From: an uncultured bacterium | GTDB taxonomy: Bacteria; Omnitrophota; Omnitrophia; Omnitrophales; Abzuiibacteriaceae | Direction of reading: 5' to 3' | Assembly: GCA_964387845.1 (NCBI GenBank) | Contig: CAYLXA010000001.1 | Location: forward strand, 192,001 to 256,000 | DNA: 64,000 nt | Shown here: positions 37,521 through 64,000 of the stretch, piece after piece | How the letters are laid out: each line of letters starts with the position of its first letter | Numbering within the stretch: position 1 is the first letter of the stretch | The notes under the pieces: model-generated | What the model saw: the letters and a program-made list of their open reading frames with translations, nothing else | Databases searched by the model: none | Told to the model about the DNA's origin: nothing | Made by a program: the position numbers and the translations under genes

Positions 37521-37565
37521 TGGTAGCGGGGGCCGGATTTGAACCGACGACCTTCAGGTTATGAG
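37521..37565 (-). other. 45-nt 3' fragment of an initiator-like tRNA-Met (anticodon loop through CCA) lacking any 5' half; putative att site (displaced tRNA end) of the integrated element
   Basis: Reverse strand reads CTCATAACCTGAAGGTCGTCGGTTCAAATCCGGCCCCCGCTACCA, near-identical to the 3' half of E. coli tRNA-fMet (..CTCATAACCCGAAGGTCGTCGGTTCAAATCCGGCCCCCGCAACCA). The upstream 30 nt do not form a D-arm or acceptor 5' strand. Confidence 0.7.
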
Positions 37566-37647
37566 TGCCCCACTCGTTCTTGTTACTTTTGTTTAATTTT
37601 GCTTAACTCTTGTTGTTATTATGAGTTAATTGAAATGGTTTTTGTTG

Positions 37648-38856
37648 CTAGTTCTTACAATTGTTTCTTATTTGTGCTGGTTTTGTTAGCACCATGTTAG
37701 CACGGCTTCCAAAAACTTCTTCATCCAATCTCTTCCCTACACCTTCATAAACAACCGGTAGCAAGTGTCCATATCGGTCAAGTGTTGTCTGAATAGAAGC
37801 ATGCCCTAATTGCGACTGAATAAGCTTAATATTTTCCCCCTGTGAAATCAAGAGGGTCGTGTAAGTATGTCTAAGGTCGTGAAACCGCACCCTTCTTAAT
37901 CCAGCCTTTTTGAGAGCACTAGAAAAATCCCGTTTCACCAAATTATCGGGATCCAGCGGATCGCCGTTTACATTGCAAAATATCAGATCGTGAAGTTTGG
38001 GAGGGAACAACTCACGGTATAAATTCAGTCCTTTCTCTAGAACTTTCGACATAACGATTGTTCTTATAGACCTTCTTGATTTTGGTGTAATAAATTTCCA
38101 ACGGTTACAATTCGTTTCTTTAATTTCGCGCCAACAGCGCCAATATAAACTCCTTCTCACGAAAATTATCTTCCGATTCCAGTCGATGTCTTTCCACTGG
38201 AGACCAAGCAACTCCCCTCTTCTCATCCCCGTCAGCACAGCTGTTAAAATGATGGTTCTTAGAGGTTCATCAGAGTTCTTTAAGAGAAGTCTGATATCTT
38301 GCGGTGTAAGAAAATCCATTTCTCTTTGCTCTTCTCGAATTCTGTCAATATCTGCCGCTGGATTTTCAAAGATATATTTCCATTTTCGAGCATGATTAAA
38401 CATGGTTTTTAAAAGGGACAGGTGGTGATTTACCGTCTTGGCGCTTCTTTTATCGTTTAACTCTGAAATGAATTTCTGAATATCATGCGGACGGATACCT
38501 AAAATAGCTCGGTCTCCCAACGCCGGAACAATGGTTGAATTAATCATTGACTCATAATTTCGGAATGTTGAGTCTTTAATAGAAACTCGAGCATAACTGT
38601 CTAGCCATTTCTTTGAAAATTCGGAAAACAAAATCTTGGGTGGCGCAAAGAAAGTTCCTTTATTAACGGATGAGAGTATTTCACTCAGCCTAGCCTCTGC
38701 GTCCTTTTTCTTCGGGCCAATGCGTTCCCACTTTTGCAAACGGCCTGACCTGAATATGATATAGTAGGCTGCTGATTGATGGCTGCATTTGCCGACACCG
38801 TCAGTCGCGTTTTTCCTGCATTTTCCACACCGCCATACGATACTACCTCTTGCCAT
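37648..38856 (-). CDS. int: Tyrosine-type site-specific integrase
   Basis: C-terminal catalytic box VRFHDLRHTYTTLLISQG...LGHASIQTTLDRYGHL (R..H-R-H..Y). Start taken at MARGSIVW; the track start at 38877 is further upstream. Confidence 0.9.
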   Translation of the reverse strand: MARGSIVWRCGKCRKNATDGVGKCSHQSAAYYIIFRSGRLQKWERIGPKKKDAEARLSEILSSVNKGTFFAPPKILFSEFSKKWLDSYARVSIKDSTFRNYESMINSTIVPALGDRAILGIRPHDIQKFISELNDKRSAKTVNHHLSLLKTMFNHARKWKYIFENPAADIDRIREEQREMDFLTPQDIRLLLKNSDEPLRTIILTAVLTGMRRGELLGLQWKDIDWNRKIIFVRRSLYWRCWREIKETNCNRWKFITPKSRRSIRTIVMSKVLEKGLNLYRELFPPKLHDLIFCNVNGDPLDPDNLVKRDFSSALKKAGLRRVRFHDLRHTYTTLLISQGENIKLIQSQLGHASIQTTLDRYGHLLPVVYEGVGKRLDEEVFGSRANMVLTKPAQIRNNCKN

Positions 38857-38907
38857 GACTGCCTCCAGGATTAGCAAGATTTATTGTACCGTATTTCGGT
38901 CTATTTA

Positions 38908-39117
38908 TCAACGCTTTCTTACAGGACGGCCGGCTTTTCTCCGTGTTTGAAGGTAATATCTGATGGAAGGCTCTTCTATAAGCCAGATTTTCGCGGTGTT
39001 CGTTATTTGCGCTTCCCTGCCCCTGATTAATCGCTTTCGAAGTAGGCGACGCAGATAACCCGGTGTCAATTTGTACTTCTTTGATGCTTCGAGTGTCGTT
39101 AGCATGACGTTTGCCAA
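38908..39117 (-). CDS. Small HTH DNA-binding protein (excisionase/MerR-like HTH_17)
   Basis: LEASKKYKLTPGYLRRLLRKRLIRG HTH; basic C-terminal tail; 69 aa. Preferred over the overlapping 99-aa ORF in another frame. Confidence 0.5.
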   Translation of the reverse strand: MANVMLTTLEASKKYKLTPGYLRRLLRKRLIRGREAQITNTAKIWLIEEPSIRYYLQTRRKAGRPVRKR

Positions 39118-39131
39118 AAGAAATATTTGCC

Positions 39132-39329
39132 TTATGATACATTATTTCTGCTCGTTTGGAAGAACCTTATTACCTCATCCTGATTGAAGCGAACGTACTT
39201 TCCCATCTTGATATGCGGAATTGCCTTTTGGCCCAAGCGTGTACGCTGATAAATCCACGTTTTAGGAACTCGCAATACTTTTGAAAGTTCACTAACTGTG
39301 ACCAAATTCTCAGACTGATTTCGTATCAT
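39132..39329 (-). CDS. AlpA-like phage transcriptional regulator/excisionase HTH protein
   Basis: LVTVSELSKVLRVPKTWIYQRTRLGQKAIPHIKMGKYVRFNQDEV is the AlpA-family pattern; 65 aa. Confidence 0.6.
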   Translation of the reverse strand: MIRNQSENLVTVSELSKVLRVPKTWIYQRTRLGQKAIPHIKMGKYVRFNQDEVIRFFQTSRNNVS

Positions 39330-40076
39330 TTAGGATTGCCCCGGCAAACGCGCATTTAACTCGCTATATGTCTGCATATCACCGATATCCTTCCAAATGC
39401 CTTCAATGCGCATTGCCACAGTCGGAACCATTCTATAAAGCCATGTAATGAAATCGCCGATCCTGTCGGGCTCATGCTTGTAGATTTTTAGATACTTATA
39501 AATCATGAAAGGAATTTCTTTCGGCAACAAGTAGACTCCAGCGCTCACTAAAGTCGATTTTGGCGCGCGGGGCTTTTCATCAAAACTTGTAATAATATGG
39601 TCTTCGTTCATTTCAATGACGCCGTACTTCTTGGCTTGTTCAATATTCTTAATGTCATAGCAAGCCAACACCGGTTTTGGCAGATGATGAAGCGCCTGCA
39701 GGATGAAATGATTCAGGGGGTAATCAAAATAATTGTCACTCGCCAAGACCAAATACTCCGAACCTCTCACTCGGGAGTCGCAGACTGCATAATAAAGGTC
39801 TAAAACAGCGCCGTTTCTTTCGTCATTGGAATTTATCCCATTATTCAATATATGAATTGGAAACACGTATTTTTGAAATGACTTCCAATACACAAATTGC
39901 TCATAAAACCGGTTGTTCGTCACAATCAAAACAGAATCTGGTTTAGTCTTGGCGACATTTTCCATCAAATGCTCCAACAGGTATTTACCACCAATATCAA
40001 GCAGCGCTTTAGGCTTACCGAGAGTTAATGGATAAAGCCTTGTCCCAAATCCTCCCGCGAGAATGATCGTGTTCAA
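39330..40076 (-). CDS. Sugar-1-phosphate nucleotidyltransferase (NDP-sugar pyrophosphorylase)
   Basis: ILAGGFGTRLYPLTLGKPKALL matches the LAGGxGTRLxPLT motif of G1P nucleotidyltransferases; 248 aa. Confidence 0.75.
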   Translation of the reverse strand: MNTIILAGGFGTRLYPLTLGKPKALLDIGGKYLLEHLMENVAKTKPDSVLIVTNNRFYEQFVYWKSFQKYVFPIHILNNGINSNDERNGAVLDLYYAVCDSRVRGSEYLVLASDNYFDYPLNHFILQALHHLPKPVLACYDIKNIEQAKKYGVIEMNEDHIITSFDEKPRAPKSTLVSAGVYLLPKEIPFMIYKYLKIYKHEPDRIGDFITWLYRMVPTVAMRIEGIWKDIGDMQTYSELNARLPGQS

Positions 40077-41023
40077 TTCCGCACCTCTACATTCGGAATT
40101 TTCAGCACAAAGTCTGATTTGATTTGAACAAATCCGCGTAAACCCGGCACAAGACCCATCGGCGGATTGGTAAGCCGGACAAGAATTCGTGAGACATATT
40201 TTGTCCGGTAGATTTTCACGATTGTTTCTTCAACCTTAGCGTCTTTTTCGGAGATTTCGCCGTCGAAATTCCCCCGCACTGAATTAAACGTTACTCTAGC
40301 CCTGTCACCTACTTTTACATGGTTCAACTTCTCTTCTGTGATAAATGCCTCAAAATAGAACTCCTTGGGATTGAACAAAATACCAAGTTTTTCTCCTTGT
40401 TTGAAATAGCTCCCGATCCTCGGCTCAAGTTCACCTAGAAATATCCCGTCAAACGGCGCTTTAATTAGGAGCGATTCTTTGCGAAGTTGAAGCAGGTTTA
40501 AATACAGTGTTGATTGTTCAACGGCCTTAGCTTTCGCATTAAGTTTATCCTTAGCGGTATTTGCTTTGAATTCTTCATTATCAAGGTCAAGTTTTGAAAT
40601 AACTCCGTTTTCATACAAGACTCGCGCACTTTCTACGCGTTGACCCGCCAAGGCACTTTCCTTCTCCATTAGTTTTAACTCGTTTTCTTCAATTTCCTTC
40701 TTTTGAAGCAAATTCACAATTTCCAATTCAAGGTCTGGATTTTCGAATTCAAAAAGGATGTCATTGATATGGACCTCCTGCGCATTTCGAATATAGGCCT
40801 TCTTCAAAACACCTTCAGTCATGAGCTGAATATCGAGTTCCTGAGCGGATTTAGCCTTTCCTTCAATTGGGGACAGCATGGCGGGAACAATCTGAAATGC
40901 GAAATGCGCTGATAAAAGCAAGGCGAAAACCATTAATATTATTTTTATTTTTTTAAAAAGGTTCACCTTCTTTAATGGTTTATTTTTTTCTGATTCATCC
41001 AAAAGATTAGGTTCTTGTGTCAT
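40073..41023 (-). CDS. HlyD-family membrane-fusion/periplasmic adaptor protein
   Basis: N-terminal TM, lipoyl-like hairpin, coiled coil, and the LIKAPFDGIF signature. The ATG at 41023 sits behind an AAGGAT RBS; the track start at 41152 is upstream inside the GT2 gene. Confidence 0.65.
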   Translation of the reverse strand: MTQEPNLLDESEKNKPLKKVNLFKKIKIILMVFALLLSAHFAFQIVPAMLSPIEGKAKSAQELDIQLMTEGVLKKAYIRNAQEVHINDILFEFENPDLELEIVNLLQKKEIEENELKLMEKESALAGQRVESARVLYENGVISKLDLDNEEFKANTAKDKLNAKAKAVEQSTLYLNLLQLRKESLLIKAPFDGIFLGELEPRIGSYFKQGEKLGILFNPKEFYFEAFITEEKLNHVKVGDRARVTFNSVRGNFDGEISEKDAKVEETIVKIYRTKYVSRILVRLTNPPMGLVPGLRGFVQIKSDFVLKIPNVEVRN

Positions 41024-42570
41024 ATAGTATTTATCCTTTTTCTGTGCATAGTTTTTGCTGAGTAATAAACAAGCGGAATAGAGAACAAAAGTGATGTGAA
41101 AATGGGGACTGCTGCCATATGGGGAAACGGTGTTCCTTGTGCTAGGTACCAAATACCCGTCAGTCCAATCACGGTCCCGGGCAACAACGCATCAATAGTT
41201 TCTGTCCACGTGATTTGCTCAAACGGATTTTTCTTCATGGGCTGCCAAATAAGCTTTTTAAGGGGGAGCGTCAGTATGTCAAATGCGGTGTAAACAAAAT
41301 TGCCCGCATAGATGAGCGTTGCAACAGTAATCTCATAGAGGAAGCGCTTAATATCATCAAATGTACGGATAAGGACTGCCTTGTGAAAGTAATTCACGAA
41401 AAGACTAAAGATCAAGATTCCGCAAAGCATCTCATTGGCCGGTTGCCCCAGGCATACGGTATTAACTTTAAATGAAATCAATTCACCGAATAGATAACTT
41501 TGCGATAAGAGGCCCAAGAGAAGCCAAAAGAGAAAAACCGGCTGCATGACGTAGCAGTAAATACCGTAAAAAGTCAAAAAACGGATAATAGGGCTGATGG
41601 ACTTCCTATATATAAGCGGAATCCCCTGCAAAGTGCCCTGCGCCCACCTAGATTCCCTGCGTCTTGATTCCAAATAATTAGAAGGCGTTTCATCATATGT
41701 CGTCACATCTGAAATAAACGCCACCCTTAATCCCAACTCATCGAGCAAGGCGGTGTCCCAGTTGTCATGTGAGAGCAGTCCTTTTGGCAGTTGAATTCTC
41801 TTAAACTGCTTTGCTCGTACGAGATGCTGATGGCCGAAAGAGATGGACTTCCTAAAGAGCGAAAAAAGAGTCGTGAAGTAAAGTCTCTGGCTTGATTCCG
41901 ACGCCAATCCTTCAAATTTGGCATAGTAAGTCTTAGCGTGCGCGGTTTTAATCAGCGTTTGAAATATGGCGATGTCCTCATTCTCCGGGTGTTGAGCCTT
42001 CCTCAGTAACTTGAGTACCGTTCTTGGAGGCACCATTGAATCGGCATCGCAGACATACAAATATTCATACACCGGATGACTGGATAGAAATTCGCTTAAA
42101 TTGCCTTGTTTCCGCTCAAAAGGTTCAGGCCGCCTTCTGTAAAACACTTTACGCCCAAGCGTTGCTTCGAGTTTTACTTGAAGTTGAAATTCTGATGGTT
42201 CATAGGCCGCGTCTGAATCACTCAGTATCCAAAAATCAACCCCGGGAAGCTGATTGTTCCTAAATGAATAAAGCATTCTTTCAAAGAGGCCGTCTTTCTC
42301 ATTTCGAATAAAATAGCAAAGCGCCGTTTTCGGAAAACGATTCACATACACTTCTTTCAGATGATGAGGCGGCGCAAACAAAAACATCAAAGCTAGGAGA
42401 AAAAGATAGATGACGTTAAGGAACAGGAAACCGAATCCGGCGATCCATCCGATTAAAATCAGACTCGACTGATATGCCGTAATCTGGTCCAAGACTAAAA
42501 ATACCGCGAGAGCATCCAGCCCGGCCAGCAACGCGATAAACCAATATTCCCGCAACCGCTTTTGTGTCAT
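41020..42570 (-). CDS. Polytopic family-2 glycosyltransferase, OpgH/MdoH-like processive beta-glycan synthase
   Basis: DSD and CDADS (DxD) motifs, RRRESRWAQG (Q/RxxRW processivity motif), and TM bundles at both ends; 516 aa. Confidence 0.7.
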   Translation of the reverse strand: MTQKRLREYWFIALLAGLDALAVFLVLDQITAYQSSLILIGWIAGFGFLFLNVIYLFLLALMFLFAPPHHLKEVYVNRFPKTALCYFIRNEKDGLFERMLYSFRNNQLPGVDFWILSDSDAAYEPSEFQLQVKLEATLGRKVFYRRRPEPFERKQGNLSEFLSSHPVYEYLYVCDADSMVPPRTVLKLLRKAQHPENEDIAIFQTLIKTAHAKTYYAKFEGLASESSQRLYFTTLFSLFRKSISFGHQHLVRAKQFKRIQLPKGLLSHDNWDTALLDELGLRVAFISDVTTYDETPSNYLESRRRESRWAQGTLQGIPLIYRKSISPIIRFLTFYGIYCYVMQPVFLFWLLLGLLSQSYLFGELISFKVNTVCLGQPANEMLCGILIFSLFVNYFHKAVLIRTFDDIKRFLYEITVATLIYAGNFVYTAFDILTLPLKKLIWQPMKKNPFEQITWTETIDALLPGTVIGLTGIWYLAQGTPFPHMAAVPIFTSLLFSIPLVYYSAKTMHRKRINTI

Positions 42571-43814
42571 GAAAGCATACCTCGCTTGAGCGCTTCCAGT
42601 TTCGCCTCGAGAATGCGGAAATTCGCAACACCTTGAATGAAATAAATCCGCGACTTTAAATAATCCTGATAAGCTTCAAAAACCTGAAGACGAGAGGCTT
42701 CGTTAACAATCATTTTCGTTTTTTCATTCTCATAGACCTCTTTCTTTTCCCGTTCAGCGGCTTTGTCTGCCTGAATCTTCTTCCTCGCAACTTCTAATTG
42801 AACCGACATGGCCTTGATCTGCCGTTCAAACTGTTTTATCTCAATCTCACCCTGCAGTTCCGCTTCCTCAACTTCCAGTCTTTTAGCTTGCACGAGATCC
42901 CGTGTCCGTCCAAAGTCCCAAATGTTCCACACGCCTTCAACGCCGAATTCGTAACGGTTCTGGTCCAGAAAGGAATCCTTGGCAACCTTGTACCGGTTTA
43001 GAACTGAAATCTGTGGATAAAGCGAAGAGCGCTCCCTCTTTTCTTCCAATCGCTTTTCTTGGGCGCGCAGCTTCACTTCCTGATAAATGGGATTTTCAGA
43101 ATATTGACTCAAGTCCGGTTTGAACCGTTTAAGATCTTGGAGGGGTTCAAGATCAATGCGAAAATCATCGGGCAGTTTCAAGAGATCTCGCAATAGGTCA
43201 ACCCCGTAATCCATCGTTTTCTTATGACTGACGAGCTCATACTGCGCAGATTTGTATAACGCTTCTGCGCGGTAAACTTCACGTTTTGTAATGAGCTCTT
43301 TTTCATGAAGCGCTTTAAAAGAGCGGTAAATCCTCTCTGACTCTTTCAGCCATTCTTGAGCAAGCAGAGTCATTTCCTTTTCCGTTATTGTTTGAATGAA
43401 AAGCGTCCTGACCTCAAACTGAACGCGCTCACGCTCATTTGAAATCTCGAGCTTCACCTGCTCTTTCTTAACAGAATGAATTTGCGCTTCGCTCCGTGCT
43501 TTCCATCCGTCAAATACCGGAAACACGATTTCGTTGGTCCAAAATAAAACGCCGGAATCCTTCTGCGTGACGGCTGCGCCGTAAGCGCTCGTTCTTACAT
43601 AAGGCCAGCAGAACTTCTTGGCATGTTTCAGCAGCGCTTGTTCCTTTTCAAGGCGGATTTGAAGCAGACGGATGCCCTCGTTGTCATTGAGCACCCGTTC
43701 AAAAGCTTCGTCCAACGTTAAGAGCTTTCCCGCTGGAAGGCCTTCTTCCGGAAACGCGGATGCCGCGTTTCCAAGAAGAAGCATGATGAGTAAACCTGCC
43801 CGCAACAATCTCAT
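42567..43814 (-). CDS. TolC-like outer-membrane factor
   Basis: Signal peptide, then two halves of long helical/coiled-coil repeats typical of the outer-membrane-efflux-protein (OEP) family; 415 aa. Confidence 0.55.
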   Translation of the reverse strand: MRLLRAGLLIMLLLGNAASAFPEEGLPAGKLLTLDEAFERVLNDNEGIRLLQIRLEKEQALLKHAKKFCWPYVRTSAYGAAVTQKDSGVLFWTNEIVFPVFDGWKARSEAQIHSVKKEQVKLEISNERERVQFEVRTLFIQTITEKEMTLLAQEWLKESERIYRSFKALHEKELITKREVYRAEALYKSAQYELVSHKKTMDYGVDLLRDLLKLPDDFRIDLEPLQDLKRFKPDLSQYSENPIYQEVKLRAQEKRLEEKRERSSLYPQISVLNRYKVAKDSFLDQNRYEFGVEGVWNIWDFGRTRDLVQAKRLEVEEAELQGEIEIKQFERQIKAMSVQLEVARKKIQADKAAEREKKEVYENEKTKMIVNEASRLQVFEAYQDYLKSRIYFIQGVANFRILEAKLEALKRGMLS

Positions 43815-43819
43815 CCTGT

Positions 43820-44083: not shown

Positions 44084-44980
44084 TTAAATCCCGTCCAGCA
44101 AAATCACCTGAATCGGGGTAAACCCGTCAACCGTGACGGATGTCTCGACTTTTACGTTCCGTAAATCCTGCCGGGCCTGGCCCGTTAAATTCTGGGCAAG
44201 GTTCATTCTGAGATTATCTTCCAATGAATAGGGGTCTCTGCTCACACCGCCTGCAAACAGACTCACCCCCGCAAGCGCTGTTTCGCCCACCGCTTTCAGA
44301 ATCCTCATGTCCGTCTGCTTGCTTACGCGCCCTTTGATGCCCGCTGAACCGTCCTCTGAAAGGGCAATCGCTCGAATCCGCCTTTCACTGCCGTCAGGCA
44401 TAATCAAAAGTTCAAAACGTACGTTGATGCGGTTGAGACTTTTTAAGACACCCGCTTCACCTAGAAACTTGGAATCCTTGGGGATAACAACTTTTCCTTC
44501 TGCTTCAAAATCTTTTGTAATAACCGCGGTTACAGGCGCCGCGACATTGAATGAAAAGATCGTATCCTTCACGAAGGCGGGAATCTTCGTGCCGGATGGA
44601 ATATTAAATTTCTGAAGCGTGGTTGATTGCGTGCCGTAAACGCTTTGGCTTCTTTTTTCCTCTTCCTTAAAAAGAAAGACATCGATATCCGTGTTGTAGT
44701 TTCTTGCTTTCCTGACCGGCCTTGCGCCGGAGAGTGCGGATGGTTTACCGTTTGATGCCTTAGGCGGCCCCGCAAAATCCGATTGGCCAAATATCTTCCT
44801 GCCGGCAGTCTCAGAATTCTTCGTGGGTTCCCCCTTATCCGTGCGCCTTTTCTGCTTGGCGCTTTGAGAATAGAAGAGAACAAGAATCATGAGCACAAGC
44901 AGTAAGACCAGCAAGACCCTGTGCTTCTTCGCCGCGCGCAACAATGTTAAGAGAGATGTCGATTTTCTAAATTCAGTCAT
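44084..44980 (-). CDS. trbI: T4SS VirB10/TrbI-family protein
   Basis: N-terminal TM, Pro/Ser-rich linker, and C-terminal IPSGTKIPAFV...VTAVITKDFEAEGKVVIPKDSKFLGEAG...RINVRFELLIMPDGSERRIRAIALSEDGSAGIKGRV matching the TrbI beta-barrel pattern. Confidence 0.65.
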   Translation of the reverse strand: MTEFRKSTSLLTLLRAAKKHRVLLVLLLVLMILVLFYSQSAKQKRRTDKGEPTKNSETAGRKIFGQSDFAGPPKASNGKPSALSGARPVRKARNYNTDIDVFLFKEEEKRSQSVYGTQSTTLQKFNIPSGTKIPAFVKDTIFSFNVAAPVTAVITKDFEAEGKVVIPKDSKFLGEAGVLKSLNRINVRFELLIMPDGSERRIRAIALSEDGSAGIKGRVSKQTDMRILKAVGETALAGVSLFAGGVSRDPYSLEDNLRMNLAQNLTGQARQDLRNVKVETSVTVDGFTPIQVILLDGI

Positions 44981-44990
44981 AATTATTTCC

Positions 44991-46007
44991 TCAATCTAGC
45001 CAGCGAAAGCCTTCGATCCGTAAGTTGCGCTCTCCCTCATCTTCAAACAGGAGGACTACCGGCTTTTCGCCTTTCTTCAAGGATCGTCTGTCAAATTGAA
45101 TGATGCCGTACTGATAAGAATCCGGAGCTACGCTTTTTTCACTCTTAAGATCAGACGGCAGTTCGACCAAGCCTTCTTTGACTTTGCGCAGACCCAAAGA
45201 TTTTTTCTCATAAGTCTGAAGCCCTACGACCATTTCCCTGATTTTGTAATCTGTTTTCGATAAATTACGAATACTGAACCTAAGATACGCTTTCTCGCCA
45301 ATCGTGGAGATGGTTAATAGGTTGAGCCTCACACCGCCCTCCTCTGCGTAATCTTTCAGCTGAACCGCTTCATTTCCTTTTTTGATTTCCTCTTTCAATT
45401 TTTCTTCGGACAAGTCCTCGGCTTTCGCATCAAGCGCTTCTTCCTTCTGTTTAAACTTTTCTTTTATAGCCGTTTCGGTTTCGTTAACCCGCTTTTCAAA
45501 TGCGTTGTCTACGATCATGTCCTCATCCGGATACCTGAAATCAATTACGAAATCAGCTGTTTCGGGTTTCCCGACCGTAACATCAAAAGTAAGCCGCGAG
45601 GATTGCGTCATGATAGTCAGATTTGTCCGCGCATCAGGATCATCCGTGACCGGTTTTATAATGACTTCCTTCTCAAAAACGCCGACTTTGAAGAGTTCCT
45701 GATCTCCGATAAACACCTTGAGCGCGGGCTCTGGCAGATCGATTGTGGAAGCATAACCGAGAGCTGTTTGGAGTTTGTAAACCACGTTCGGCCTCATGCT
45801 TGCGGAGTAAATCCTCTTCTCGCTAACGGAATTCCTATTGATCCGTTTTCTTTCGGCTACAGCGTCCTGCGGCACCTGGTCTGGGTTGGCGACGCTAAGC
45901 TCTGCTTGCTCTACGCTATTTAAATCCTTCCCAAATTCCTCTGCGCAATAGCCATCGTGCGCAAGTGCAATTAAAATTACTGCGATTAAAGTAAAGCATT
46001 TCATCAT
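44991..46007 (-). CDS. T4SS VirB9/TrbG-like secreted protein
   Basis: Signal peptide; 338 aa and beta-rich; position between the VirB8-like and VirB10-like genes. Confidence 0.5.
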   Translation of the reverse strand: MMKCFTLIAVILIALAHDGYCAEEFGKDLNSVEQAELSVANPDQVPQDAVAERKRINRNSVSEKRIYSASMRPNVVYKLQTALGYASTIDLPEPALKVFIGDQELFKVGVFEKEVIIKPVTDDPDARTNLTIMTQSSRLTFDVTVGKPETADFVIDFRYPDEDMIVDNAFEKRVNETETAIKEKFKQKEEALDAKAEDLSEEKLKEEIKKGNEAVQLKDYAEEGGVRLNLLTISTIGEKAYLRFSIRNLSKTDYKIREMVVGLQTYEKKSLGLRKVKEGLVELPSDLKSEKSVAPDSYQYGIIQFDRRSLKKGEKPVVLLFEDEGERNLRIEGFRWLD

Positions 46008-51033: not shown

Positions 51034-51034
51034 G

Positions 51035-51337: not shown

Positions 51338-51412
51338 ATATTCACCTTGGGGGATAGCGGGGTCAATTTTGACCCCGCCCTTTGGAACAGCCGCATGCGC
51401 TGTAAAAGTCCC

Positions 51413-51456
51413 CTCATAGATGTTGTGCAAAAACGGGCATTTCGTAACAAGAAATT
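51413..51456. promoter_or_regulatory. Conserved ~45-nt element (copy 1), ~75 nt upstream of the pilin gene; candidate promoter/operator
   Basis: ctcatagatgttgtgcaaaaacGGGcatttcgtaacaagAaaatt is about 90% identical to 58630-58674. Confidence 0.5.
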
Positions 51457-53362: not shown

Positions 53363-53410
53363 GGTAAGTCTCCTTAGGTTTAATTGGGATTGAACTACTG
53401 AAGTGATAAA

Positions 53411-55536: not shown

Positions 55537-57360
55537 TCATCGTTTGGCTCCTCTTATCTTTTCAAATTTATGCGCAGTATCACTGAGCGTTTGAAACTGA
55601 TCGCTTTCGTCTTGAACGATTTCAGGCTTTGCGCTTTCACGTTTCCAATGCTCTGTTGCCCGCTCACGTTCATCTTTAATCTTCATGTGTATCCATGTTA
55701 AATTAATGTCTGTTTCAGAGGACAGCCGCAGATAATCAATTTTAAAACTTGGATATTTCATGACAACAATCGCTTCGCCGCGTCCAAGTGAACGAACCAA
55801 GTCAGGGTCGATGCGAAACGTCTGCGCTTCTCTGACAGATCCTCGCCCTGTCATGTCTGTGCCGAGCATGCCGGATTCAGTCTGATACGTGGAAACAAAA
55901 GTTCTTCGGGAGCCTCCAATTTTTGAATATTTGTCAATCGAGAATGGGTCATCCTGACGCATGATGATTTTTACGTTTGTGTTCTCGAGGATTTGCTGCT
56001 GAAAGGTCATGCGCTTCGCCGCGAGGTCAGCCAGGCTTTGGTGAAGAAGCGTTACAGCAAGTTTGGCGCCGCGCGCTTTATTCATGAAATCGATGAAGTT
56101 CTCGTAGACAAAGCTTGAAAATTCATCCACGTACACAGGAAAAAAGTGCCGCTCACCCTCTTCCATCTGCGTTTGAATGTAGTTGGAAACTGTTTTAATG
56201 TCCTGCAGGATGAGACGCCCGAATCTTTTCGCCGTTTCTTCGTAGCCCTGCGTATTGAGTGCGAAATAGACAATTTTATTCTTCTGATAAACCTCTAGGA
56301 GGTCAATTTTTGATTCCTGAGAATCCGTCAGTCTTGAAAACTCTGATTTAGTTACGAGGCCTAAATCCGCGATGAATCCAGAGAGAAACTTGGTATTATC
56401 ATGAAACATGTCTTTCATGACTTCCAAGTCCTTCGACATCCGGATATCGTCAAGCTGCGCTATCAGCGCTCGTAATTGATTCTTGTCCGTTAAAAGCTCA
56501 TACAAATCCCGGAACCTGACTTTTCTGTTCAAACTCACCAAAGCTCTGAGCAATGTCAATGCGGCTTCTTCCGCCTTTTTTCTGTAAAATTCCTCGCGCC
56601 ATTCAGTAGAGCCGATCAGTTTGTCCTTAATCTCTGATGCGTTTCCGCGCAAGAGTGGGTTGTATGTGTCCGATATTTCCGGATGTGATAGCGAGAAGAA
56701 TAGAAAGTCATCTTTCCTGCCGTTAATTTGAACAAAGTAACGAATCTTCGCCAATAATTCCAAATCGCCCTTGGCGTCCACGACTATCGCCCCGCGGCCT
56801 CGCTCGATATCCCTTTTAAGCAGCGGAAGCATGACTGATTCTGTTTTACCAACGCCCGTTGAACCTACAACATGCGTATGCATGAGCCTCATGTCATCCG
56901 TTAAGTAACAGCCCTTGCCCGACCAATAACTCGTACCCAGATAAGCTTGATTCGCCTCAACCGCCGTTTTTTGCTTCGTGATTTCTCTCGAAGAAATTCT
57001 CTTCAATCTGCGTTTCTTATCGTCAGAGGATGTATCTTTCGAATTCTTCATTGCATATCCCGTCAACATGAAAAACGGCAATGTAATCAACAAATAGGCG
57101 CTGTAGAGGCACGTAGCCGCGACTCCCGCTTTCGTCCAAGGTCTCGCCTCAAACCTTTCAACAAACCCATTTAAATATTTAATTGACCAAATGGTCGTAA
57201 GCGCTGCAAGCAAGGTGCTCAAATAAGCTATTATCTTGACCCAAGAACTAGATTGATTCTTGACCCATCCGTCAAGCTTCTTGCCCAACCATACCGGAAC
57301 GGATACGAAAAGGAATTCAAACGTTGACCCCGTAAGGCCCTTTGACGGCTTCTCATTCAT
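55537..57360 (-). CDS. Type IV coupling protein (VirD4/TraG/TraD family)
   Basis: Two N-terminal TM helices; Walker A VVGSTGVGKTES, Walker B-like IVVDAKGDLE, and the TraG/VirD4-like C-terminal all-alpha region; 607 aa. Confidence 0.8.
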   Translation of the reverse strand: MNEKPSKGLTGSTFEFLFVSVPVWLGKKLDGWVKNQSSSWVKIIAYLSTLLAALTTIWSIKYLNGFVERFEARPWTKAGVAATCLYSAYLLITLPFFMLTGYAMKNSKDTSSDDKKRRLKRISSREITKQKTAVEANQAYLGTSYWSGKGCYLTDDMRLMHTHVVGSTGVGKTESVMLPLLKRDIERGRGAIVVDAKGDLELLAKIRYFVQINGRKDDFLFFSLSHPEISDTYNPLLRGNASEIKDKLIGSTEWREEFYRKKAEEAALTLLRALVSLNRKVRFRDLYELLTDKNQLRALIAQLDDIRMSKDLEVMKDMFHDNTKFLSGFIADLGLVTKSEFSRLTDSQESKIDLLEVYQKNKIVYFALNTQGYEETAKRFGRLILQDIKTVSNYIQTQMEEGERHFFPVYVDEFSSFVYENFIDFMNKARGAKLAVTLLHQSLADLAAKRMTFQQQILENTNVKIIMRQDDPFSIDKYSKIGGSRRTFVSTYQTESGMLGTDMTGRGSVREAQTFRIDPDLVRSLGRGEAIVVMKYPSFKIDYLRLSSETDINLTWIHMKIKDERERATEHWKRESAKPEIVQDESDQFQTLSDTAHKFEKIRGAKR

Positions 57361-58088
57361 CCCAAGATGGAGCGTAGAGGAATTCTGGATGCCTTATTCA
57401 TCAGCTCCGCATCTTTCTTTTTCAGTAAGAGCTCATCATAGAGCACAAAGCAAAGCTTATTCTGAGGAACTTCAATGTCCAATAGCCAGCTCTTCACCAT
57501 GTGCCAAGACAGGATATAAATCACCAGGGTGAAATCATTTAGACGGCTGTATTTCGCAAACCTTGTCTCATACCTTTCCCGTTCCCTGAAGGAATTTTCA
57601 AGTTCAATCGCAATTCTCTGCCCGCTTACTTCGATGACCGCGTCAGGAAAAAATTCCCGGTCGTGCTCTTCTTTTCTGACAACCCGTTCGCTCAGCCATT
57701 TAACACCCTTAAAGTCCCGAAACAGGCACCGCAACGTCGCCAACTTGAGCGTATGCTCTATCGTATATTGGTTGATATCCCCGATTTCTCCAAAGCCACG
57801 GTCCAGCCCTTTCTCTTTCAAGACATCTATCCCCTCAGCCGTCAGCAGAAAAAGTCTCACTTTTTCTGATTTCGCCTTCTGGACATCCAAAGTCCTAATA
57901 AATCCTGCATCAACAAGCTTGCTCAAACGCTGCCTTGCAGTTCCTGACCTCACTTCGCTGTCAGGCCAAAATGCCGAGTAAATTTGATTCGCCATCATGT
58001 ACTTTTGTTCATTCAAGTACGTGAATATCTCGATATCACGCTCTGTAATGACGACACGCCGCAATTTATCCAATAAGTTTTCAGCCAC
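57357..58088 (-). CDS. Replication-relaxation family protein (winged-helix N-terminus); candidate non-canonical relaxase/accessory factor
   Basis: N-terminal wHTH ERDIEIFTYLNEQKYMMANQIYSAF...RQRLSKLVDAGFI; 243 aa; translationally coupled to the coupling-protein gene. Confidence 0.4.
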   Translation of the reverse strand: MAENLLDKLRRVVITERDIEIFTYLNEQKYMMANQIYSAFWPDSEVRSGTARQRLSKLVDAGFIRTLDVQKAKSEKVRLFLLTAEGIDVLKEKGLDRGFGEIGDINQYTIEHTLKLATLRCLFRDFKGVKWLSERVVRKEEHDREFFPDAVIEVSGQRIAIELENSFRERERYETRFAKYSRLNDFTLVIYILSWHMVKSWLLDIEVPQNKLCFVLYDELLLKKKDAELMNKASRIPLRSILG

Positions 58089-58549: not shown

Positions 58550-58629
58550 TGTGGAACTCCTTATGTGGAAGCTTTATCGCTTCAAGTCTTTCATCCAAGT
58601 TTATGCTTGGCGGTTTCTGTTTATTTTTC

Positions 58630-58674: not shown

Positions 58675-58761
58675 CAAGCAAATTCAATTAACAGATGGAA
58701 AATATTTTTTTATGTCTATTAATGAACTCAATTCATTCAACTCACCACTTCCTCACGAGCA

Positions 58762-58852
58762 CCTGTCCAAAAACCCTATCTCTCTACACACACCACACCC
58801 ACTGACAAGTACCCCTCGATTACGGATGGGAGAGATAGGGTTTTTGGACGGG
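58762..58852. repeat. Long perfect inverted repeat (20-bp arms, extendable to 23 bp with one G-U pair, 45-nt loop); candidate oriT or structured RNA
   Basis: 58765-58784 gtccaaaaaccctatctctc and 58830-58849 gagagatagggtttttggac; lies in the 455-nt non-coding gap between the STAND gene and the relaxation/T4CP block. Confidence 0.6.
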
Positions 58853-59004
58853 GACTCTCCCCGACGCTTGTGCGAAGTGAGGAAGTTACGTAGAATGCTT
58901 CAGTTACGAAGGAAGCGATGAATTCAAGTTCCCCTAAGTTACAATTTTTTGCGGGGATGAATGCGGAAATTTAAAATTAAACAAACATGTTCTTACGGTA
59001 ATGC

Positions 59005-62000
59005 TTATATAGTAGCCTCTGCGTCTTGGGTAAGCTCTTGTTTCATTTGTTCATCGCCGTAATTTCCAACATCTAAATAAAATTGATGCGCAGGGTGTTC
59101 TACACTAAAAAGCTTTGCGGTTTCCTTACCGCGAGTTGCTAGATTTTGGCTCTTTGCTGAGACTTCTCCAAATGACCTTGATGATCCCCCGCTAATTGCT
59201 ATTCCAAATAGATTGGATTTTACACGTTTAAGGCATTCAGCAGATTTATTTGAAGCCAATAGAATCAACTCTCCAACAAAAGCGTGCTCGTTAAATATAA
59301 AATTATCCTCCGCGTCTCTGACTAAAAGAGATATGCCCACAAGTTTATTTACAGTAGGATTTTTAAACCACTCTTTTAATATAGCTAAAGATTTAGCCGA
59401 ATACCCATCTGAAACTGCCCGAAAAAGCTTTTCAAGCCAAAAACGATCCGCTGTTTTTGCTAAAGACAGATTTCGAACTACTCTTACGTGCTTCTCATAT
59501 CCCATCATCGTGGAAATACCTTTATAAGCAGTGTCAAATCCTAAATACGGAAGGGGCGTATAATTTTCTCTTCTTGTAAGTTTTTTGACGGGCTTAGTTG
59601 ATTGACTATATAAATAGCGTGCAACTAAAAACTCAACGGCTGCCTGCGGATATTTTCTACAAACAAAAGAAAGGAATTCCTCAACATGGAAATCCTGCCG
59701 TTCAAAGATGTTAAATTTAACCAATTTGCTTAATAAGGATTTTAATTCGGTTTCATTCAGCTTAGAAAATGGAATGCCATAGTTCTCATTATAAATTTCA
59801 AAAAATTGGTCGAGCACTATTCCTCTTTCTTTCAAATCAATGCCCACAGCAAGTTTCTTAGCAGCTTCCGCATCAACCTGCCCTAGTTTTTGAAGTGCCT
59901 GAAGCGCCGTGCCAAAAATATTGTCGTTGCTATGTTTGAGTAAATACCCTACATTCTGGATATCCTCTTTAAAGGGTTTTTCTAAAAGGCCGCCCCAAGC
60001 GTAGGCATGAGCAATGTTGTGGTAGACGATTTGCCTTTTTGTTTTTAGTCCTTGTTTAATTAACGCCCTACTGATTTCTCGATAACTTTCCAATCCATTC
60101 AAGGGCCATAAAATTGATGAGCAAAATTTTTCCACTTCACCATTCTTTCTAGCGAGGCAAAGCTTAAATAATTTTACGGCGAAATCGGGATTGAGTTTTG
60201 TAATTTGAGAAAGAAGGTAATTGGGGTTAGCTGATCTTTTGTAGTGATTTAAATCGCGTAATCTTTTTTCTAAAACCATTAACAACTGACGAGGATTCTT
60301 AGCCTGTTTCAATAAGATTTCAGCTACCCCGCTCACCTCTTTTGCCGTTATTTCAGTTTGTTTACTAAAATCATGCTTTTTATTAACAAATTCTTCGAAA
60401 TCGTGAGCTATCGCACGGACAAGACGATATTCGAAATTCTCCGGTATAAGCTCATAAATACTTTTGATTTTTTTCTTTAATTCGTCGTGCCTTCCAAACA
60501 AACTAAACCAACGAAGTTGCGATCTTACGGCAAGTCGGAAACAGGACGACTTAATGATCTTTAATTTTCTTTTAACCAATTCGAGAATTGATAACTGTTC
60601 TGGCAAATAAACATCTTGCTCTGACTTTCCAGCGCGACGACCGTATAGTCCATGAGAATAGCTCAATGCTTTTAAGAGAGTATAAAGAGCTTCCATTAAC
60701 ATCTTTGGCGGGGCATCCGGTTGGATGAAGGAGCCAAGTAATTCTATAGTGCTATTACGCAAGTTTTTCACGGCTTCGTAATTTAAAGGCAAAGACCTGA
60801 AGGACATGCTTCCTTCATCGTACGAAGACTCTTCAATCTCTTTCGCGAGGAATTCTTCCAAAATATTCAAAGGTGTATAACGGTAAATAAAGTTATTTTT
60901 CTTGGCCACGGTTTCTTTAAGGAAGGCAAAAACTTTCTTATTGTAAACAAGGGGCTTTCCGACTTGATATTCAGCCAACTCTTTTAAGATTCTAACGGAA
61001 TGCTGCGGATGAGGATTTAATTCTCTTTCGTCAGTTTTTGCAATTTCCCAGAGAATTTTACAGGCAGGAGTGACATATTCTAAATTAAAGGCTATCTTTT
61101 TTAATATAGATGGAATTTTTTCCAATACATGACGATGCTTCCAGAAATCTCCATATAATTGCTTCTTAGGATTAGGGCGTGCGGGCGCTTTAATGGCGTG
61201 GTTTACTAGCTCTAATGCTTTATCAGGTTGATAATACGCCGACTCTTCGATTTCTTCCAAGATTTTAGTTCGCTCATAATGATCAGCTTTTCTAAAATCT
61301 TCGTGGATTTTTTTCCAAACGGAACTTAAAAGATCTACATTCAAGGCATTTTTTCTTGCTCGCCACTCTACTTCAGAAATATTTTTAAGAATGTTTTTTG
61401 CTAGAGTTGATTTAAATTTCTCATACACATGATCAGCAAATTTAGTGCTTGAGCCATCTTTGGCAATACAGGCTGAGTGAAGAATATGATCACTCAATAA
61501 ATCAGGAGCAAGCCTTGCCAACGCTCCGCGTCTTATCAAAACCCCTTTTTCTTCCATCGCATCAAATGCTTTGACAATATCAAAAACAGGACACGCAAGA
61601 AGTTCGGACAATTGTTTCCGTAACTCCTCGTTATTCAATCTCACTGGGGCAAGCACAGAAAGATATTGAAGAAGCTTATCTGCTAATCCCGGATTGGAGT
61701 AATTTTCTCCTTTAAGTTCATCTATAAATTTATCTAAAACGGTTCTTTGAAATTCATCGCTTTTGCTTATTTTGTATGGATGCAGCTTTTTATCGCGAAT
61801 TAATTTGCTGGCAATTACCGCTGCCAGGGGGCAGTCTCTGGTCATAGCCACGATATATTTAATCAGGCCAGAATCATGTCCGACAATGCTTTCAACGATT
61901 TCTTCTAAATCAACCTTTTTCAAATCACTTAACTCCGGAGGCCGTTCGATTTCGTTTAACAAAAGATTTGTATGCGCCAATACACTATCGACAAATTCTT

Positions 62001-62919
62001 TTCCGCGAGGGCGAATAGACAAAATGATTTTGATTTCGTCTTTCCGTGGAGAGTTGAAAATTGATAAAAGGTTGGGAAGACTCGTATATCTATGAGCATC
62101 ATCAATAACCAAAATGCTGCGGCCAGCCGGAAGAAGAGAAATTGTTTCAGTAGTTAGAACAAAGTTTTCACGAACAAATAAGACCCTAGCCCACTCACTC
62201 ACACCCACTTCTTGTTTTTTAGAAAATTCTAATAATAATTTACTTTTACCAATGCCGCCTCTTCCCGTAAGAACGATTACCTTCTTATCCGAGTTTGCAA
62301 AAGCTTCTAGACTAGACAATTCTGAGCTACGACCGACAAGATTAATCTCATGAGAAAATAAAACATCGCGCCGTAAGAGCGTACGAAAAAAATCTTGATA
62401 CGAAACAAGCGGCCCCTTTTTTCTATCTTCAAACTCCTTATAGGCGCTTATTGCGTTTAAAAATTCCTCACGAAGCTGATCAGACTCTGAAAATCTCTTA
62501 AATGTTCGCTCTTGTGCAACCTTATCAAAAAAAGCTTGGTGTTTCTTTTTTACTTCCAGGTCTTCGTCTTTAGGCTGCCATTCTTTTCCATTCGGAGTTT
62601 TTAAAAAAACAAAAACTTTTAAGCCTAAGCGGGTAGCTCGCTCATATTCTATTTGAGTATAAGAAATGCCAGCTTTGGGATTTACGGTTCCATACAGAGG
62701 CCCGATTAACAAGACAACGCAATCAGATCCCTCTAGATGCCGAAGACACGTTTCTTCAGGCGTATCAGGACTTGAAGGAAACCATTCCATTGCAGAAAAT
62801 TCTGTACCTTGTGCCGGAGTTAAACCTAAGAGGTTATTCCGTTCATCATTTAGACCAGCTTGTGGTGAACTTAAGAAGATTTTGAACTTTTTGAGGTCAG
62901 CCATTGAAAACTCTTCCAA
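59005..62919 (-). CDS. STAND-class P-loop NTPase with DUF4062-like N-terminal domain and ~900-aa C-terminal helical-repeat domain (Avs-like candidate antiphage protein)
   Basis: N-terminus KIFLSSPQAGLNDERNNL...CLRHLEGSDCVVLLIGPLYGT...ISYTQIEYERATRLGLKVFVF (FLSS motif); Walker A VIVLTGRGGIGKSKLL, Walker B SILVIDDAHRY; the remainder is all-alpha and repetitive; 1304 aa. Confidence 0.7.
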   Translation of the reverse strand: MEEFSMADLKKFKIFLSSPQAGLNDERNNLLGLTPAQGTEFSAMEWFPSSPDTPEETCLRHLEGSDCVVLLIGPLYGTVNPKAGISYTQIEYERATRLGLKVFVFLKTPNGKEWQPKDEDLEVKKKHQAFFDKVAQERTFKRFSESDQLREEFLNAISAYKEFEDRKKGPLVSYQDFFRTLLRRDVLFSHEINLVGRSSELSSLEAFANSDKKVIVLTGRGGIGKSKLLLEFSKKQEVGVSEWARVLFVRENFVLTTETISLLPAGRSILVIDDAHRYTSLPNLLSIFNSPRKDEIKIILSIRPRGKEFVDSVLAHTNLLLNEIERPPELSDLKKVDLEEIVESIVGHDSGLIKYIVAMTRDCPLAAVIASKLIRDKKLHPYKISKSDEFQRTVLDKFIDELKGENYSNPGLADKLLQYLSVLAPVRLNNEELRKQLSELLACPVFDIVKAFDAMEEKGVLIRRGALARLAPDLLSDHILHSACIAKDGSSTKFADHVYEKFKSTLAKNILKNISEVEWRARKNALNVDLLSSVWKKIHEDFRKADHYERTKILEEIEESAYYQPDKALELVNHAIKAPARPNPKKQLYGDFWKHRHVLEKIPSILKKIAFNLEYVTPACKILWEIAKTDERELNPHPQHSVRILKELAEYQVGKPLVYNKKVFAFLKETVAKKNNFIYRYTPLNILEEFLAKEIEESSYDEGSMSFRSLPLNYEAVKNLRNSTIELLGSFIQPDAPPKMLMEALYTLLKALSYSHGLYGRRAGKSEQDVYLPEQLSILELVKRKLKIIKSSCFRLAVRSQLRWFSLFGRHDELKKKIKSIYELIPENFEYRLVRAIAHDFEEFVNKKHDFSKQTEITAKEVSGVAEILLKQAKNPRQLLMVLEKRLRDLNHYKRSANPNYLLSQITKLNPDFAVKLFKLCLARKNGEVEKFCSSILWPLNGLESYREISRALIKQGLKTKRQIVYHNIAHAYAWGGLLEKPFKEDIQNVGYLLKHSNDNIFGTALQALQKLGQVDAEAAKKLAVGIDLKERGIVLDQFFEIYNENYGIPFSKLNETELKSLLSKLVKFNIFERQDFHVEEFLSFVCRKYPQAAVEFLVARYLYSQSTKPVKKLTRRENYTPLPYLGFDTAYKGISTMMGYEKHVRVVRNLSLAKTADRFWLEKLFRAVSDGYSAKSLAILKEWFKNPTVNKLVGISLLVRDAEDNFIFNEHAFVGELILLASNKSAECLKRVKSNLFGIAISGGSSRSFGEVSAKSQNLATRGKETAKLFSVEHPAHQFYLDVGNYGDEQMKQELTQDAEATI

Positions 62920-63071
62920 TATTACTCTGGTGATTTGCGCTCTTTCTTATACATGATTCCATGACAAGAAATTATATCCTAATTTAGAGTTCCCCCATAA
63001 AACTAATTGGGGGGCAATTAGACTTAAACGAGGATCCTCACACTGCCCCAATCTCACTAGCGCGCAAAAAC

Positions 63072-63428
63072 TCACGCTGAGGAATTATCAAGTGAAATCG
63101 ATAAGAGCCAATGGCCATTGTGCTGATTTTTGATTTTTTTAAGATTTTCATACCGTTTAAACAAATCATCCGGCAAACGTTCAAGGGCGTTTTCGATATG
63201 CTTATTGACAGTCTTTGGCTTAATTTTCATGGCTTGAGCGATTTCCTTCCGCTTCATGAAAAGCGAGAGAATAAAAGACGCCTTCTGGCTTGCCGTCAGC
63301 GAACGGAATAAGACCGGAGAACGGGGATTAATCTTTTCAGAGAACACGCGAGAGTTTGATTGGTCTCGCTCCTGCTCTCTGACAAGTTGTTCTAATTCCG
63401 GTGAAAACTTTTTAAATTGTTTTGGCAT
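63072..63428 (-). CDS. Small sigma-70 region-4-like HTH regulator
   Basis: LTASQKASFILSLFMKRKEIAQAMKIKPKTVNKHIENALERL; 118 aa. Confidence 0.5.
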   Translation of the reverse strand: MPKQFKKFSPELEQLVREQERDQSNSRVFSEKINPRSPVLFRSLTASQKASFILSLFMKRKEIAQAMKIKPKTVNKHIENALERLPDDLFKRYENLKKIKNQHNGHWLLSISLDNSSA

Positions 63429-63576
63429 AAGTTCTGAGAAATAAAACCGATTTCCTCAGAAGTCTCTTATGCCTGGCCGGCTTGCTGGAACGCGCTTCCT
63501 TTTGATCAAAATCAAAAGGCCAGCAGCGCTCCTGCCTCCAGCGTTAAGCCGACTTTCTGAAAACTTAGTTGGACTT

Positions 63577-63766
63577 TTACACGATAAGCCTGATTGGACT
63601 GTCCACGATTATTTCAGCGCGGACACCGAAACGGCCGGGTCGATCTATTCGTTGCTTGGGGACAATGGCGAGCTTGCCATTAATAATCTTAAGCCTGACT
63701 TCGCCAAATTCTACTTCCCCAAGAAAGTCTTCCATCTTTATTTCGGGGTGATCCATTTCTCTTGGC
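63577..63766 (-). CDS. Small hypothetical protein (start taken at MDHPEIK)
   Basis: Strong RBS AAAGGAGGTG 9 nt upstream of the ATG at 63766; about 62 aa. Confidence 0.35.
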
Positions 63767-64000
63767 ACCTCCTTTTCTGTTGAAAGCTGTTATAAAAATC
63801 CAGTTTGAGCATTTTGAATATGACTCAACTTTAATCGGCGATGATGCACTGGTCAAGAAAATCGGTGCACATTTTGAGAGTTATCTACTCACAGTAGATG
63901 AATATCCATCCACACTAGATATTTTTTAGACAAAGATTTGCAAAAGCTTTTTATAAAGTCGGGTGATTTATCTGTAACGATGACTAACCTAACCTACGCA

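Follow-up and report, generated by a model that had tools for sequence, protein, structure and literature searches.

The stretch of DNA analysed here, referred to as the window, comprises 64,000 nucleotides from an uncultured bacterium of the Omnitrophota (positions 192,001 to 256,000 of contig CAYLXA010000001.1, GenBank assembly GCA_964387845.1). From position 37521 onward it very probably carries part of an integrative and conjugative element (ICE) of about 47.9 kb that was integrated by its own tyrosine integrase into an initiator-type tRNA-Met gene of the Candidatus Omnitrophota chromosome. The features that lead to this conclusion are a recombinase gene located at one end of the element, att repeats, junctions with an intact and with a displaced tRNA part, an empty site in a relative, a mating-pair formation apparatus of the VirB4 type and a coupling protein. 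The element is of an ordinary, textbook ICE kind; its novelty lies in the phylum of the host and in a transfer apparatus that is very divergent. A tRNA-targeting ICE had already been proposed in a first-pass annotation made from the letters of the sequence, and this proposal is now supported by both junctions, by the gene content, by the empty site and by the layout found around the closest homolog of the integrase.

Junctions at the tRNA-Met gene and the empty locus in a relative

The junction within the window, attR, is marked by a 45-nt string, CTCATAACCTGAAGGTCGTCGGTTCAAATCCGGCCCCCGCTACCA, that occurs only once in the window, at 37521..37565 on the minus strand, and for which 100 shuffles did not yield a single chance match even when three mismatches were tolerated. 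On the minus strand, the fragment represents the 3' half of an initiator-type tRNA-Met: it begins with the anticodon loop (CTCATAA) and closes with an encoded CCA at 37521..37523, and 37524..37565 form a 42-nt direct repeat. A syntenic relative has an intact tRNA-Met gene whose 3' part agrees with the fragment at every position over 42 of the 45 nt; from the 3' half of Escherichia coli tRNA-fMet, the fragment differs at two of 45 positions. ARAGORN did not call a tRNA at 37521..37565; in the whole window it reported a single tRNA, namely the elongator-type tRNA-Met at 6798..6870. The sequence located 5' of the fragment (...AACGAGTGGGGCA, ending with GAGTGGGGCA) does not provide a tRNA 5' half. 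The string is unique, ARAGORN is silent and the bases on the 5' side are unrelated, and the original description of a tRNA-Met 3' half with CCA and without a 5' half is thus borne out.

On the host side of attR, a gene on the minus strand (37085..37510) encodes a lipoprotein of 141 aa with the lipobox LFSSC, as judged from its open reading frame (ORF) and translation. Its ATG at 37510 follows the CCA of the fragment at a distance of 10 nt, exactly as given in the first-pass annotation. The protein has no match in Pfam or NCBIfam. Its residues 15-141 are 55% identical to a lipoprotein adjoining UppP in a related genome (L083, see below) and, because this identity extends from the signal-peptide core onward, we assign the gene including its N-terminus to the host. 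Beyond the lipoprotein gene follow those for UppP, HemW, MsrA, an MgtC-like protein and MetH. The whole region 24263..37040 consists of housekeeping or otherwise ordinary host genes, among them MetH, MsrA, HemW and UppP, and the window is collinear with the chromosome of a relative down to about 20.8 kb, in agreement with the earlier view that host genes occupy the part before about 37.5 kb.

The opposite end of the element lies outside the window. It was found in an independent short-read assembly (k = 31) of sample SRR15237813, in which the genome is present in fragments. One of its contigs, 66336 (26,617 nt), is 100% identical to window positions 58838..64000 and runs 21.4 kb past the window. 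This contig opens with AGGTCGTCGGTTCAAATCCGGCCCCCGCTA, which corresponds to the final 30 nt of the tRNA 3' half and stops at the discriminator base. Next come GTTTCG..., GTTTCGTAAATAAAATAGCCATCGATAGTTACATCGATGGCTATTTTTTT, with a hairpin and a T run that appear terminator-like by eye, and without CCA. The host contig with the UppP and lipoprotein genes starts with the identical 30-mer and then continues with CCATCGCTTTTAAATG (CCATCGC...) and the lipoprotein gene. A third contig from the same sample (L087) ends with enolase, DivIC, a spacer of 65 nt and CGCGGGGTAGAGCAGCCCGGTAGCTCGTCA, which is the tRNA 5' half; by eye, TTGCAA-17-TATAAT is recognized in the 65-nt spacer. The two ends of the element also differ in what follows the discriminator base: in the element-supplied tRNA 3' end (L091, 1..110), GCTA is directly followed by GTT and no CCA is encoded, whereas the displaced host copy includes the CCA and then leads into the lipoprotein gene (37511..37523).

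Two entries and two exits surround the shared sequence, a pattern expected of a k = 31 graph at a repeat longer than 30 nt. Since the window shows the integrase end, the repeat and the lipoprotein gene on one path, the other path must consist of DivIC with the tRNA 5' half, the repeat and the far end of the element. In the ICE model, the attL path would read DivIC, 65 nt, CGCGGGGTAGAGCAGCCCGGTAGCTCGTCAGGCTCATAACCTGAAGGTCGTCGGTTCAAATCCGGCCCCCGCTAGTTTCGTAAATAAAATAGCC, and the junction between DivIC and the tRNA would continue into GTTTCGTAAATAAAATAGCC... and then into a region with FG-GAP and RHS genes. When the two parts are put together, the resulting attL folds into a tRNA-Met(CAT) of 74 nt in which C1.U72 atop the acceptor stem is mismatched, a hallmark of initiator tRNAs, and which is identical to E. 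coli tRNA-fMet at 69 of 74 positions. The 42-nt repeat is seen in full at attR and over its last 30 nt at attL, where the first 12 nt are reconstructed, and the two copies are identical as far as they are seen. Counting one repeat, the size of the element amounts to about 47.9 kb, and from the last position of the window it is about 21.4 kb to the intact tRNA. The first-pass annotation had indeed expected the reconstituted tRNA beyond position 64000 and had suggested a search for a second att copy there. The GC content of the element is 42.4%, as compared to 46.8% in the host part of the window.

It is very improbable that the arrangement is an assembly artefact, in which a plasmid with an attP-like tRNA 3' half was joined to the chromosome across the 42-nt repeat. 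The k = 31 assembly breaks exactly at the repeat and so cannot confirm the joins; however, 42 nt are fewer than an ordinary read covers, so that larger k-mers resolve the repeat. Furthermore, protein records of the NCBI place DivIC, enolase, the RHS protein and other proteins of the far end and of the window on a contig of 409,037 nt, which we regard as a single contig, that of the window, and which appears to hold both host flanks together with the whole element. Finally, the closest homolog of the integrase resides in the same integrated layout in contigs of the Joint Genome Institute (JGI) from two samples.

A locus without the element was found via the MetH cluster in L083, a relative from a JGI metagenome that is collinear in its genes and about 76% identical at the DNA level. 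Here, an interval of about 435 nt extends from the end of DivIC (position 5211) to the start of the lipoprotein ORF (5647), and all that it contains is an intact tRNA-Met gene (5422..5495). As the distance between the corresponding flanks is 47.9 kb in the window genome, we consider this locus of L083 an empty site. A comparison with related genomes had been recommended in the first-pass annotation, and it turned up exactly this: the tRNA-Met at the locus and no element. DivIC and the tRNA point in one direction both in L087, the contig of the window genome, and in L088, a further relative, as the ICE model needs; the L088 contig ends in the anticodon loop of the tRNA. A scan of representative genomes with UppP yielded 80 loci with 58-70% identity, none of which had shared neighbours or an upstream tRNA-Met. 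The names attached to relatives of enolase and of UppP identify the organism as Candidatus Omnitrophota.

Integrase module and model of integration

The gene for the tyrosine integrase (37648..38856, minus strand; 402 aa from the ATG at 38856) is located 82 nt from attR and is transcribed toward it. The protein matches Phage_integrase with 97.8 bits and Phage_int_SAM_3 with 53.2 bits. Its 402-aa form is on record in the protein database, and exact database look-ups with the 409-aa integrase ORF, the 141-aa lipoprotein and a protein designated P0001 remained without a match. Directly upstream of the integrase, an excisionase-like HTH_17 protein of 65 aa is encoded (39132..39329, minus strand; HTH_17 32.1 bits at a cut-off of 27). 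A small ORF of 69 aa (38908..39117, minus strand) shows a weak HTH_17 match under the cut-off (E = 0.013) and possibly specifies a second DNA-binding accessory protein. A promoter-like site, TTGATA-17-TACAAT, is present upstream of the integrase start (38911..38883, minus strand).

Relatives of the integrase number in the thousands (2,463 proteins at E <= 1e-30), with homologs at about 50-57% identity. A scan of metagenome contigs with the integrase retrieved full-length relatives with at most 31% identity and two fragments of 41 residues at 56%, and was uninformative. The closest homolog, P0148 (57% identity), is encoded in an unrelated small element (L104). In this element, many small ORFs come first, then the genes for an AAA_25 protein, for an HTH_17 protein of 60 aa and for the integrase, and after 44 nt CTCATAACCTGAAGGTCTCGGGTTCAAATCCCGACCCCGCAACCA. 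The latter is the 3' half of another initiator-type tRNA-Met; it starts at the anticodon-loop CTCATAA, has no 5' half and is located downstream of the integrase gene and co-directional with it. This P0148-type integrated layout is present in JGI contigs from two samples. It provides independent support for the notion that the integrase clade may use the block from the anticodon loop to the 3' end of tRNA-fMet as att site and keep the integrase at the end with the displaced fragment. Such a position of the integrase had been pointed out for the window from the outset, and it recurs in the element of the closest homolog.

Owing to its many tiny ORFs and its primase/helicase-like AAA_25 gene, the small element itself (L104, 1..9130) looks satellite- or phage-like, and a 13-nt string, GCAACCAGATTAA, recurs about 50 nt downstream of its tRNA fragment.

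A tyrosine integrase and an excisionase at a tRNA gene are also a phage pattern, and the closest homolog of the integrase belongs to a small element with a primase/helicase-like gene. Nevertheless, we give next to no credence to the idea that the window harbors a prophage or a phage-like satellite. Pfam did not reveal any capsid, portal, terminase or tail family among the ORFs scanned, which were 27 window ORFs and some further ones of the element, or in the precomputed annotation of the genes on the far-end contig. Instead, the element carries genes for a type IV secretion system (T4SS), a coupling protein and a pilin.

For the ICE, the following course of integration is proposed. Before the insertion, the locus would have consisted of enolase, DivIC, a tRNA-fMet gene with encoded CCA, a 10-nt spacer, the lipoprotein gene, UppP and HemW. 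The circular form of the element would carry an attP with the 42-nt block in the order GAGTGGGGCA, repeat, GTTTCG, and the integrase would recombine this attP with the tRNA gene. The crossover would fall inside the 42-nt identity block, whose two ends are the anticodon loop (CTCATAA) and the discriminator base. After the insertion, attL would combine the host 5' half with an element-supplied 3' half that lacks CCA and is followed by the terminator-like hairpin and T run, and attR would consist of the original 3' half with CCA, left adjoining the excisionase-integrase module.

Since the host downstream DNA has stayed with the displaced fragment, the CCA was probably encoded in the ancestral tRNA gene as well, with the lipoprotein gene 10 nt behind it. 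The two genes were therefore likely co-transcribed ancestrally. Between the integrase stop and the lipoprotein ATG, neither a sigma-70-like promoter nor a terminator was found on the minus strand. Together with the promoter-like site upstream of the integrase, this makes it plausible that the lipoprotein gene now depends on element sequence, and we propose that it may be transcribed by read-through from the integrase gene.

Transfer genes, cargo and alternative readings

From 37648 to about 63400, every gene is on the minus strand. The T4SS operon (44084..51430) was delineated with Pfam and NCBIfam and encodes the mating-pair formation proteins. It comprises genes for a VirB10/TrbI-like protein (44084..44980; TrbI above the Pfam gathering score), a VirB9/CagX-like protein (44991..46007; CagX above the gathering score), three unknown ORFs (46004..48296), a VirB4/TraC-like ATPase (48293..50773; P-loop_TraG 112 bits, TraC-F-type E = 1.6e-75), a TraL-like protein (50770..51033), which is borderline with 24.1 bits at a cut-off of 24.4, and a TrbC/VirB2 pilin (51035..51430; TrbC above the gathering score). 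When the VirB4-like ATPase was compared with plasmid proteins by tblastn, the best match originated from a Myxococcus stipitatus plasmid (25.7% identity), and Thermus plasmids followed at about 22%. As the protein does not exceed 25.7% identity to any plasmid-encoded protein, the transfer system has to be regarded as very divergent. The VirB9-like protein also matches DUF2381, a myxobacterial Pfam family, and shows a weak match to TraN of Bacteroidetes. These affinities of VirB4 and VirB9 give hints of an uncharacterised T4SS lineage.

The gene for a type IV coupling protein of the TraD/VirD4 type (55537..57360, minus strand) is identified by T4SS-DNA_transf (39.9 bits at a cut-off of 20.1), TraG-D_C and TrwB_AAD_bind as well as by SXT_TraD (E = 1.1e-34). 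Its start is overlapped by 4 nt by the 3' end of the gene for a relaxase candidate of the MOB_C/replication-relaxation type (57357..58088, minus strand; 243 aa), which matches Replic_Relax with 30.4 bits (cut-off 25.3) and the NCBIfam model MobC_subf with 56.6 bits (cut-off 200). A 28-nt inverted repeat with 89% complementarity and a spacer of 45 nt (58757..58857) is a candidate origin of transfer (oriT). It is situated about 670 nt upstream of the relaxase-like gene, past an ORF of 135 aa, in a gap of 455 nt before the gene for a STAND NTPase, and a short-read contig of SRR15237813 breaks exactly at this repeat. In the life cycle that we envisage, the HTH_17 protein would direct excision, the MOB_C-like protein would nick at oriT, for which the inverted repeat at 58757..58857 is the candidate, and the coupling protein would pass the DNA to the T4SS.

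The remaining genes of the element within the window were assigned by Pfam and lie on the minus strand. A block next to the integrase module (39330..43814) encodes a sugar nucleotidyltransferase, an HlyD-type membrane-fusion protein, a family-2 glycosyltransferase (GT2) and an outer-membrane efflux protein (OEP). A LuxR/GerE-type regulator (51469..51837) and a pair consisting of a class-II glutamine amidotransferase and an Amidoligase_2 protein (52325..54685) are encoded between the T4SS operon and the coupling-protein gene in the case of the pair, and just past the pilin gene in the case of the regulator. Pairing of an amidotransferase with Amidoligase_2 has reportedly been noted in conjugative elements. 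The STAND NTPase (59005..62919; about 1300 aa with an N-terminal DUF4062) is counted as cargo, and a small LuxR-like regulator follows at 63072..63428. PADLOC did not return a match for the STAND NTPase, the amidoligase, the glutamine amidotransferase or the RHS protein. The statement of the first-pass annotation that every gene from the junction to the window end is mobile-element-like therefore holds in a loose sense: next to the genes for the integrase, the excisionase-like protein, the T4SS, the coupling protein and the relaxase-like protein, a considerable part is cargo.

Beyond the window, the first gene inside attL (L091, 311..925) encodes a fusion protein of 204 aa, in which an excisionase-type HTH_17 domain (residues 17-63) is combined with a receiver domain (residues 78-192). 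Further regulators in this part are a seven-transmembrane (7TM) histidine kinase, at least four more receiver proteins and an HTH_3/cupin regulator. The fusion protein, the kinase and the receivers may serve a signal-controlled regulation of the element. In addition, surface proteins of the FG-GAP and Glucodextran_B types, an acyl-carrier-like protein and a methyltransferase are encoded. An RHS/Tc-type toxin-like protein of 2070 aa (L090, 8488..16213) contains SpvB, TcdB_toxin_midN and RHS repeats. A 503-aa Glucodextran_B/Big-domain protein is encoded before it and a TPR protein after it. The RHS, Glucodextran_B and TPR genes may constitute a toxin-delivery module.

The 21-26 kb nearest attL are devoid of conjugation genes, and the GC content drops to 38-41% around 58-64 kb, as compared to 44-48% in the T4SS region. 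Two islands could thus be arranged in tandem at one tRNA gene, a non-conjugative one adjoining the tRNA, with the two-component, RHS toxin and STAND NTPase genes, and an ICE, with the internal att site lost. We consider this improbable. No further copy of the 42-nt repeat exists inside the element at up to 16 mismatches, the whole element contains one integrase only, and large cargo regions are normal in ICEs.

Several observations weigh against the interpretation as an ICE. The linkage of both flanks on the 409-kb NCBI contig rests on protein records and not on the contig sequence. The 14 nt that join the tRNA 5' half to the 30-mer (GG + CTCATAACCTGA) do not occur in any retrieved contig of the sample and are taken from relatives. 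Equivalents of VirB6, VirB8 and VirB11 were not identified in profile scans of the element ORFs, and the same scans did not reveal a canonical relaxase, the MOB_C-like match being weak. In L083, moreover, the tRNA-Met gene has the opposite orientation and is accompanied by a 19-nt scar. With an inverted and scarred tRNA, the comparison shows that the locus is the same, and not that L083 contains an identical attB. An inversion in the window genome, as could be suspected from the orientation in L083, was considered and dropped, as both L087 and L088 are co-directional and L083 is the odd one out.

With regard to L083 itself, a partial copy of the tRNA 3' end of 19 nt is present at 5293..5312, in the same orientation as the tRNA and 110 nt from its 3' end. 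The copy looks like the scar of an earlier integration or excision at this site, and in L083 the tRNA was possibly inverted by an integrase.

The want of a canonical relaxase beside a weak MOB_C-like match, and of recognizable VirB6, VirB8 and VirB11, would also suit a decayed or non-autonomous ICE, that is, a derived genomic island fixed in the chromosome that no longer excises or transfers by itself. Nonetheless, we regard such decay as unlikely. The 42-nt repeats are identical as far as seen (attR as a whole, attL over its last 30 nt), and the ORFs for the integrase, the excisionase-like protein, VirB4 and the coupling protein are of full length within a set of tightly packed genes of a single orientation. 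In addition, OEP and TrbI proteins with at least 90% identity are present in other samples, which suggests a circulating element. If the element is a complete ICE, it may still excise and transfer.

Apart from the element, one host gene of the window deserves mention. It occupies 24260..27583 and encodes a protein of 1107 aa that consists nearly entirely of HEAT/PBS-lyase-like repeats and is conserved in relatives. The protein yields many partial matches to the models for CpcE, NblB and CpcF.

Relation to known systems and significance

ICEs with a tyrosine integrase that target tRNA genes are exemplified by ICEclc at tRNA-Gly, ICEMlSym R7A at tRNA-Phe and ICEHin1056 at tRNA-Leu. The element in the window has much in common with them: a tyrosine integrase with an excisionase-like partner, a T4SS, a coupling protein and large cargo, as well as integration at the 3' part of a tRNA gene such that the tRNA is restored at one end and a displaced fragment is left at the other. 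It differs from all three in its target, initiator tRNA-Met, in its host from the Omnitrophota and in its remote T4SS (VirB4 25.7%). Furthermore, the integrase adjoins the intact tRNA in ICEclc and ICEMlSym R7A, whereas it adjoins the displaced fragment in the window. The relaxase types of ICEclc-like ICEs also differ from MOB_C, the type that the candidate in the window resembles.

Integrase subfamilies are said to differ in their preferred sublocations within tRNA genes, and one such class is reportedly that of the anticodon loop. The element resembles this class in that the 42-nt identity block reaches from the 7-nt anticodon loop to the tRNA 3' end, with the same start in L104. MOB_C relaxases are represented by MobC of CloDF13 and TraX of pAD1, and mobC of CloDF13 adjoins mobB. 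In a similar manner, the candidate of about 240 aa, with its matches to Replic_Relax and to the NCBIfam 'MobC family replication-relaxation protein', is encoded adjacent to the coupling-protein gene. The scores of the candidate are low, however (30.4 and 56.6 bits). With respect to the T4SS, the TraC/VirB4-type systems of Myxococcus and Thermus plasmids supplied the best tblastn matches of the VirB4-like ATPase (21-27% identity), a comparison made for the ATPase alone.

One could go further and speculate that the element stands for an undescribed conjugation lineage native to the Omnitrophota, with two-component control of excision and transfer and perhaps, through the RHS/Tc-type toxin and the FG-GAP surface proteins, with a part in cell-to-cell interactions of the sort that have been proposed for these very small bacteria. 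The proposal of a new lineage derives from a VirB4 with about 25% identity to any plasmid-borne one and from the MOB_C-like relaxase candidate, and that of two-component control from the HTH_17-receiver fusion nearest attL, the element's own 7TM histidine kinase and its several receivers. At present, we regard this extended scenario as doubtful.

In the literature searched, the mobile elements described for Omnitrophota are plasmids, phages and non-canonical integrative elements. A T4SS-bearing, tRNA-integrated ICE in this phylum is not described in the texts searched, an absence that applies to these texts and is not proof that none exists. For a phylum that is known almost only from metagenome-assembled genomes, the element analysed here very probably provides a delimited ICE, of which the two junctions, the size and an empty locus for comparison are available. 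The general understanding of ICEs is unchanged by it; it is of use for annotation, for surveys of the host range of conjugation systems and for defining the att site that a large clade of integrases may share. For the host, the integration would exchange the CCA-encoding 3' end of the initiator tRNA for one that lacks CCA and is followed by a terminator-like hairpin and T run. At the same time it would part the lipoprotein-UppP gene string from the tRNA promoter, and the locus would thus be a small example of how an integrating element rewires a host locus.

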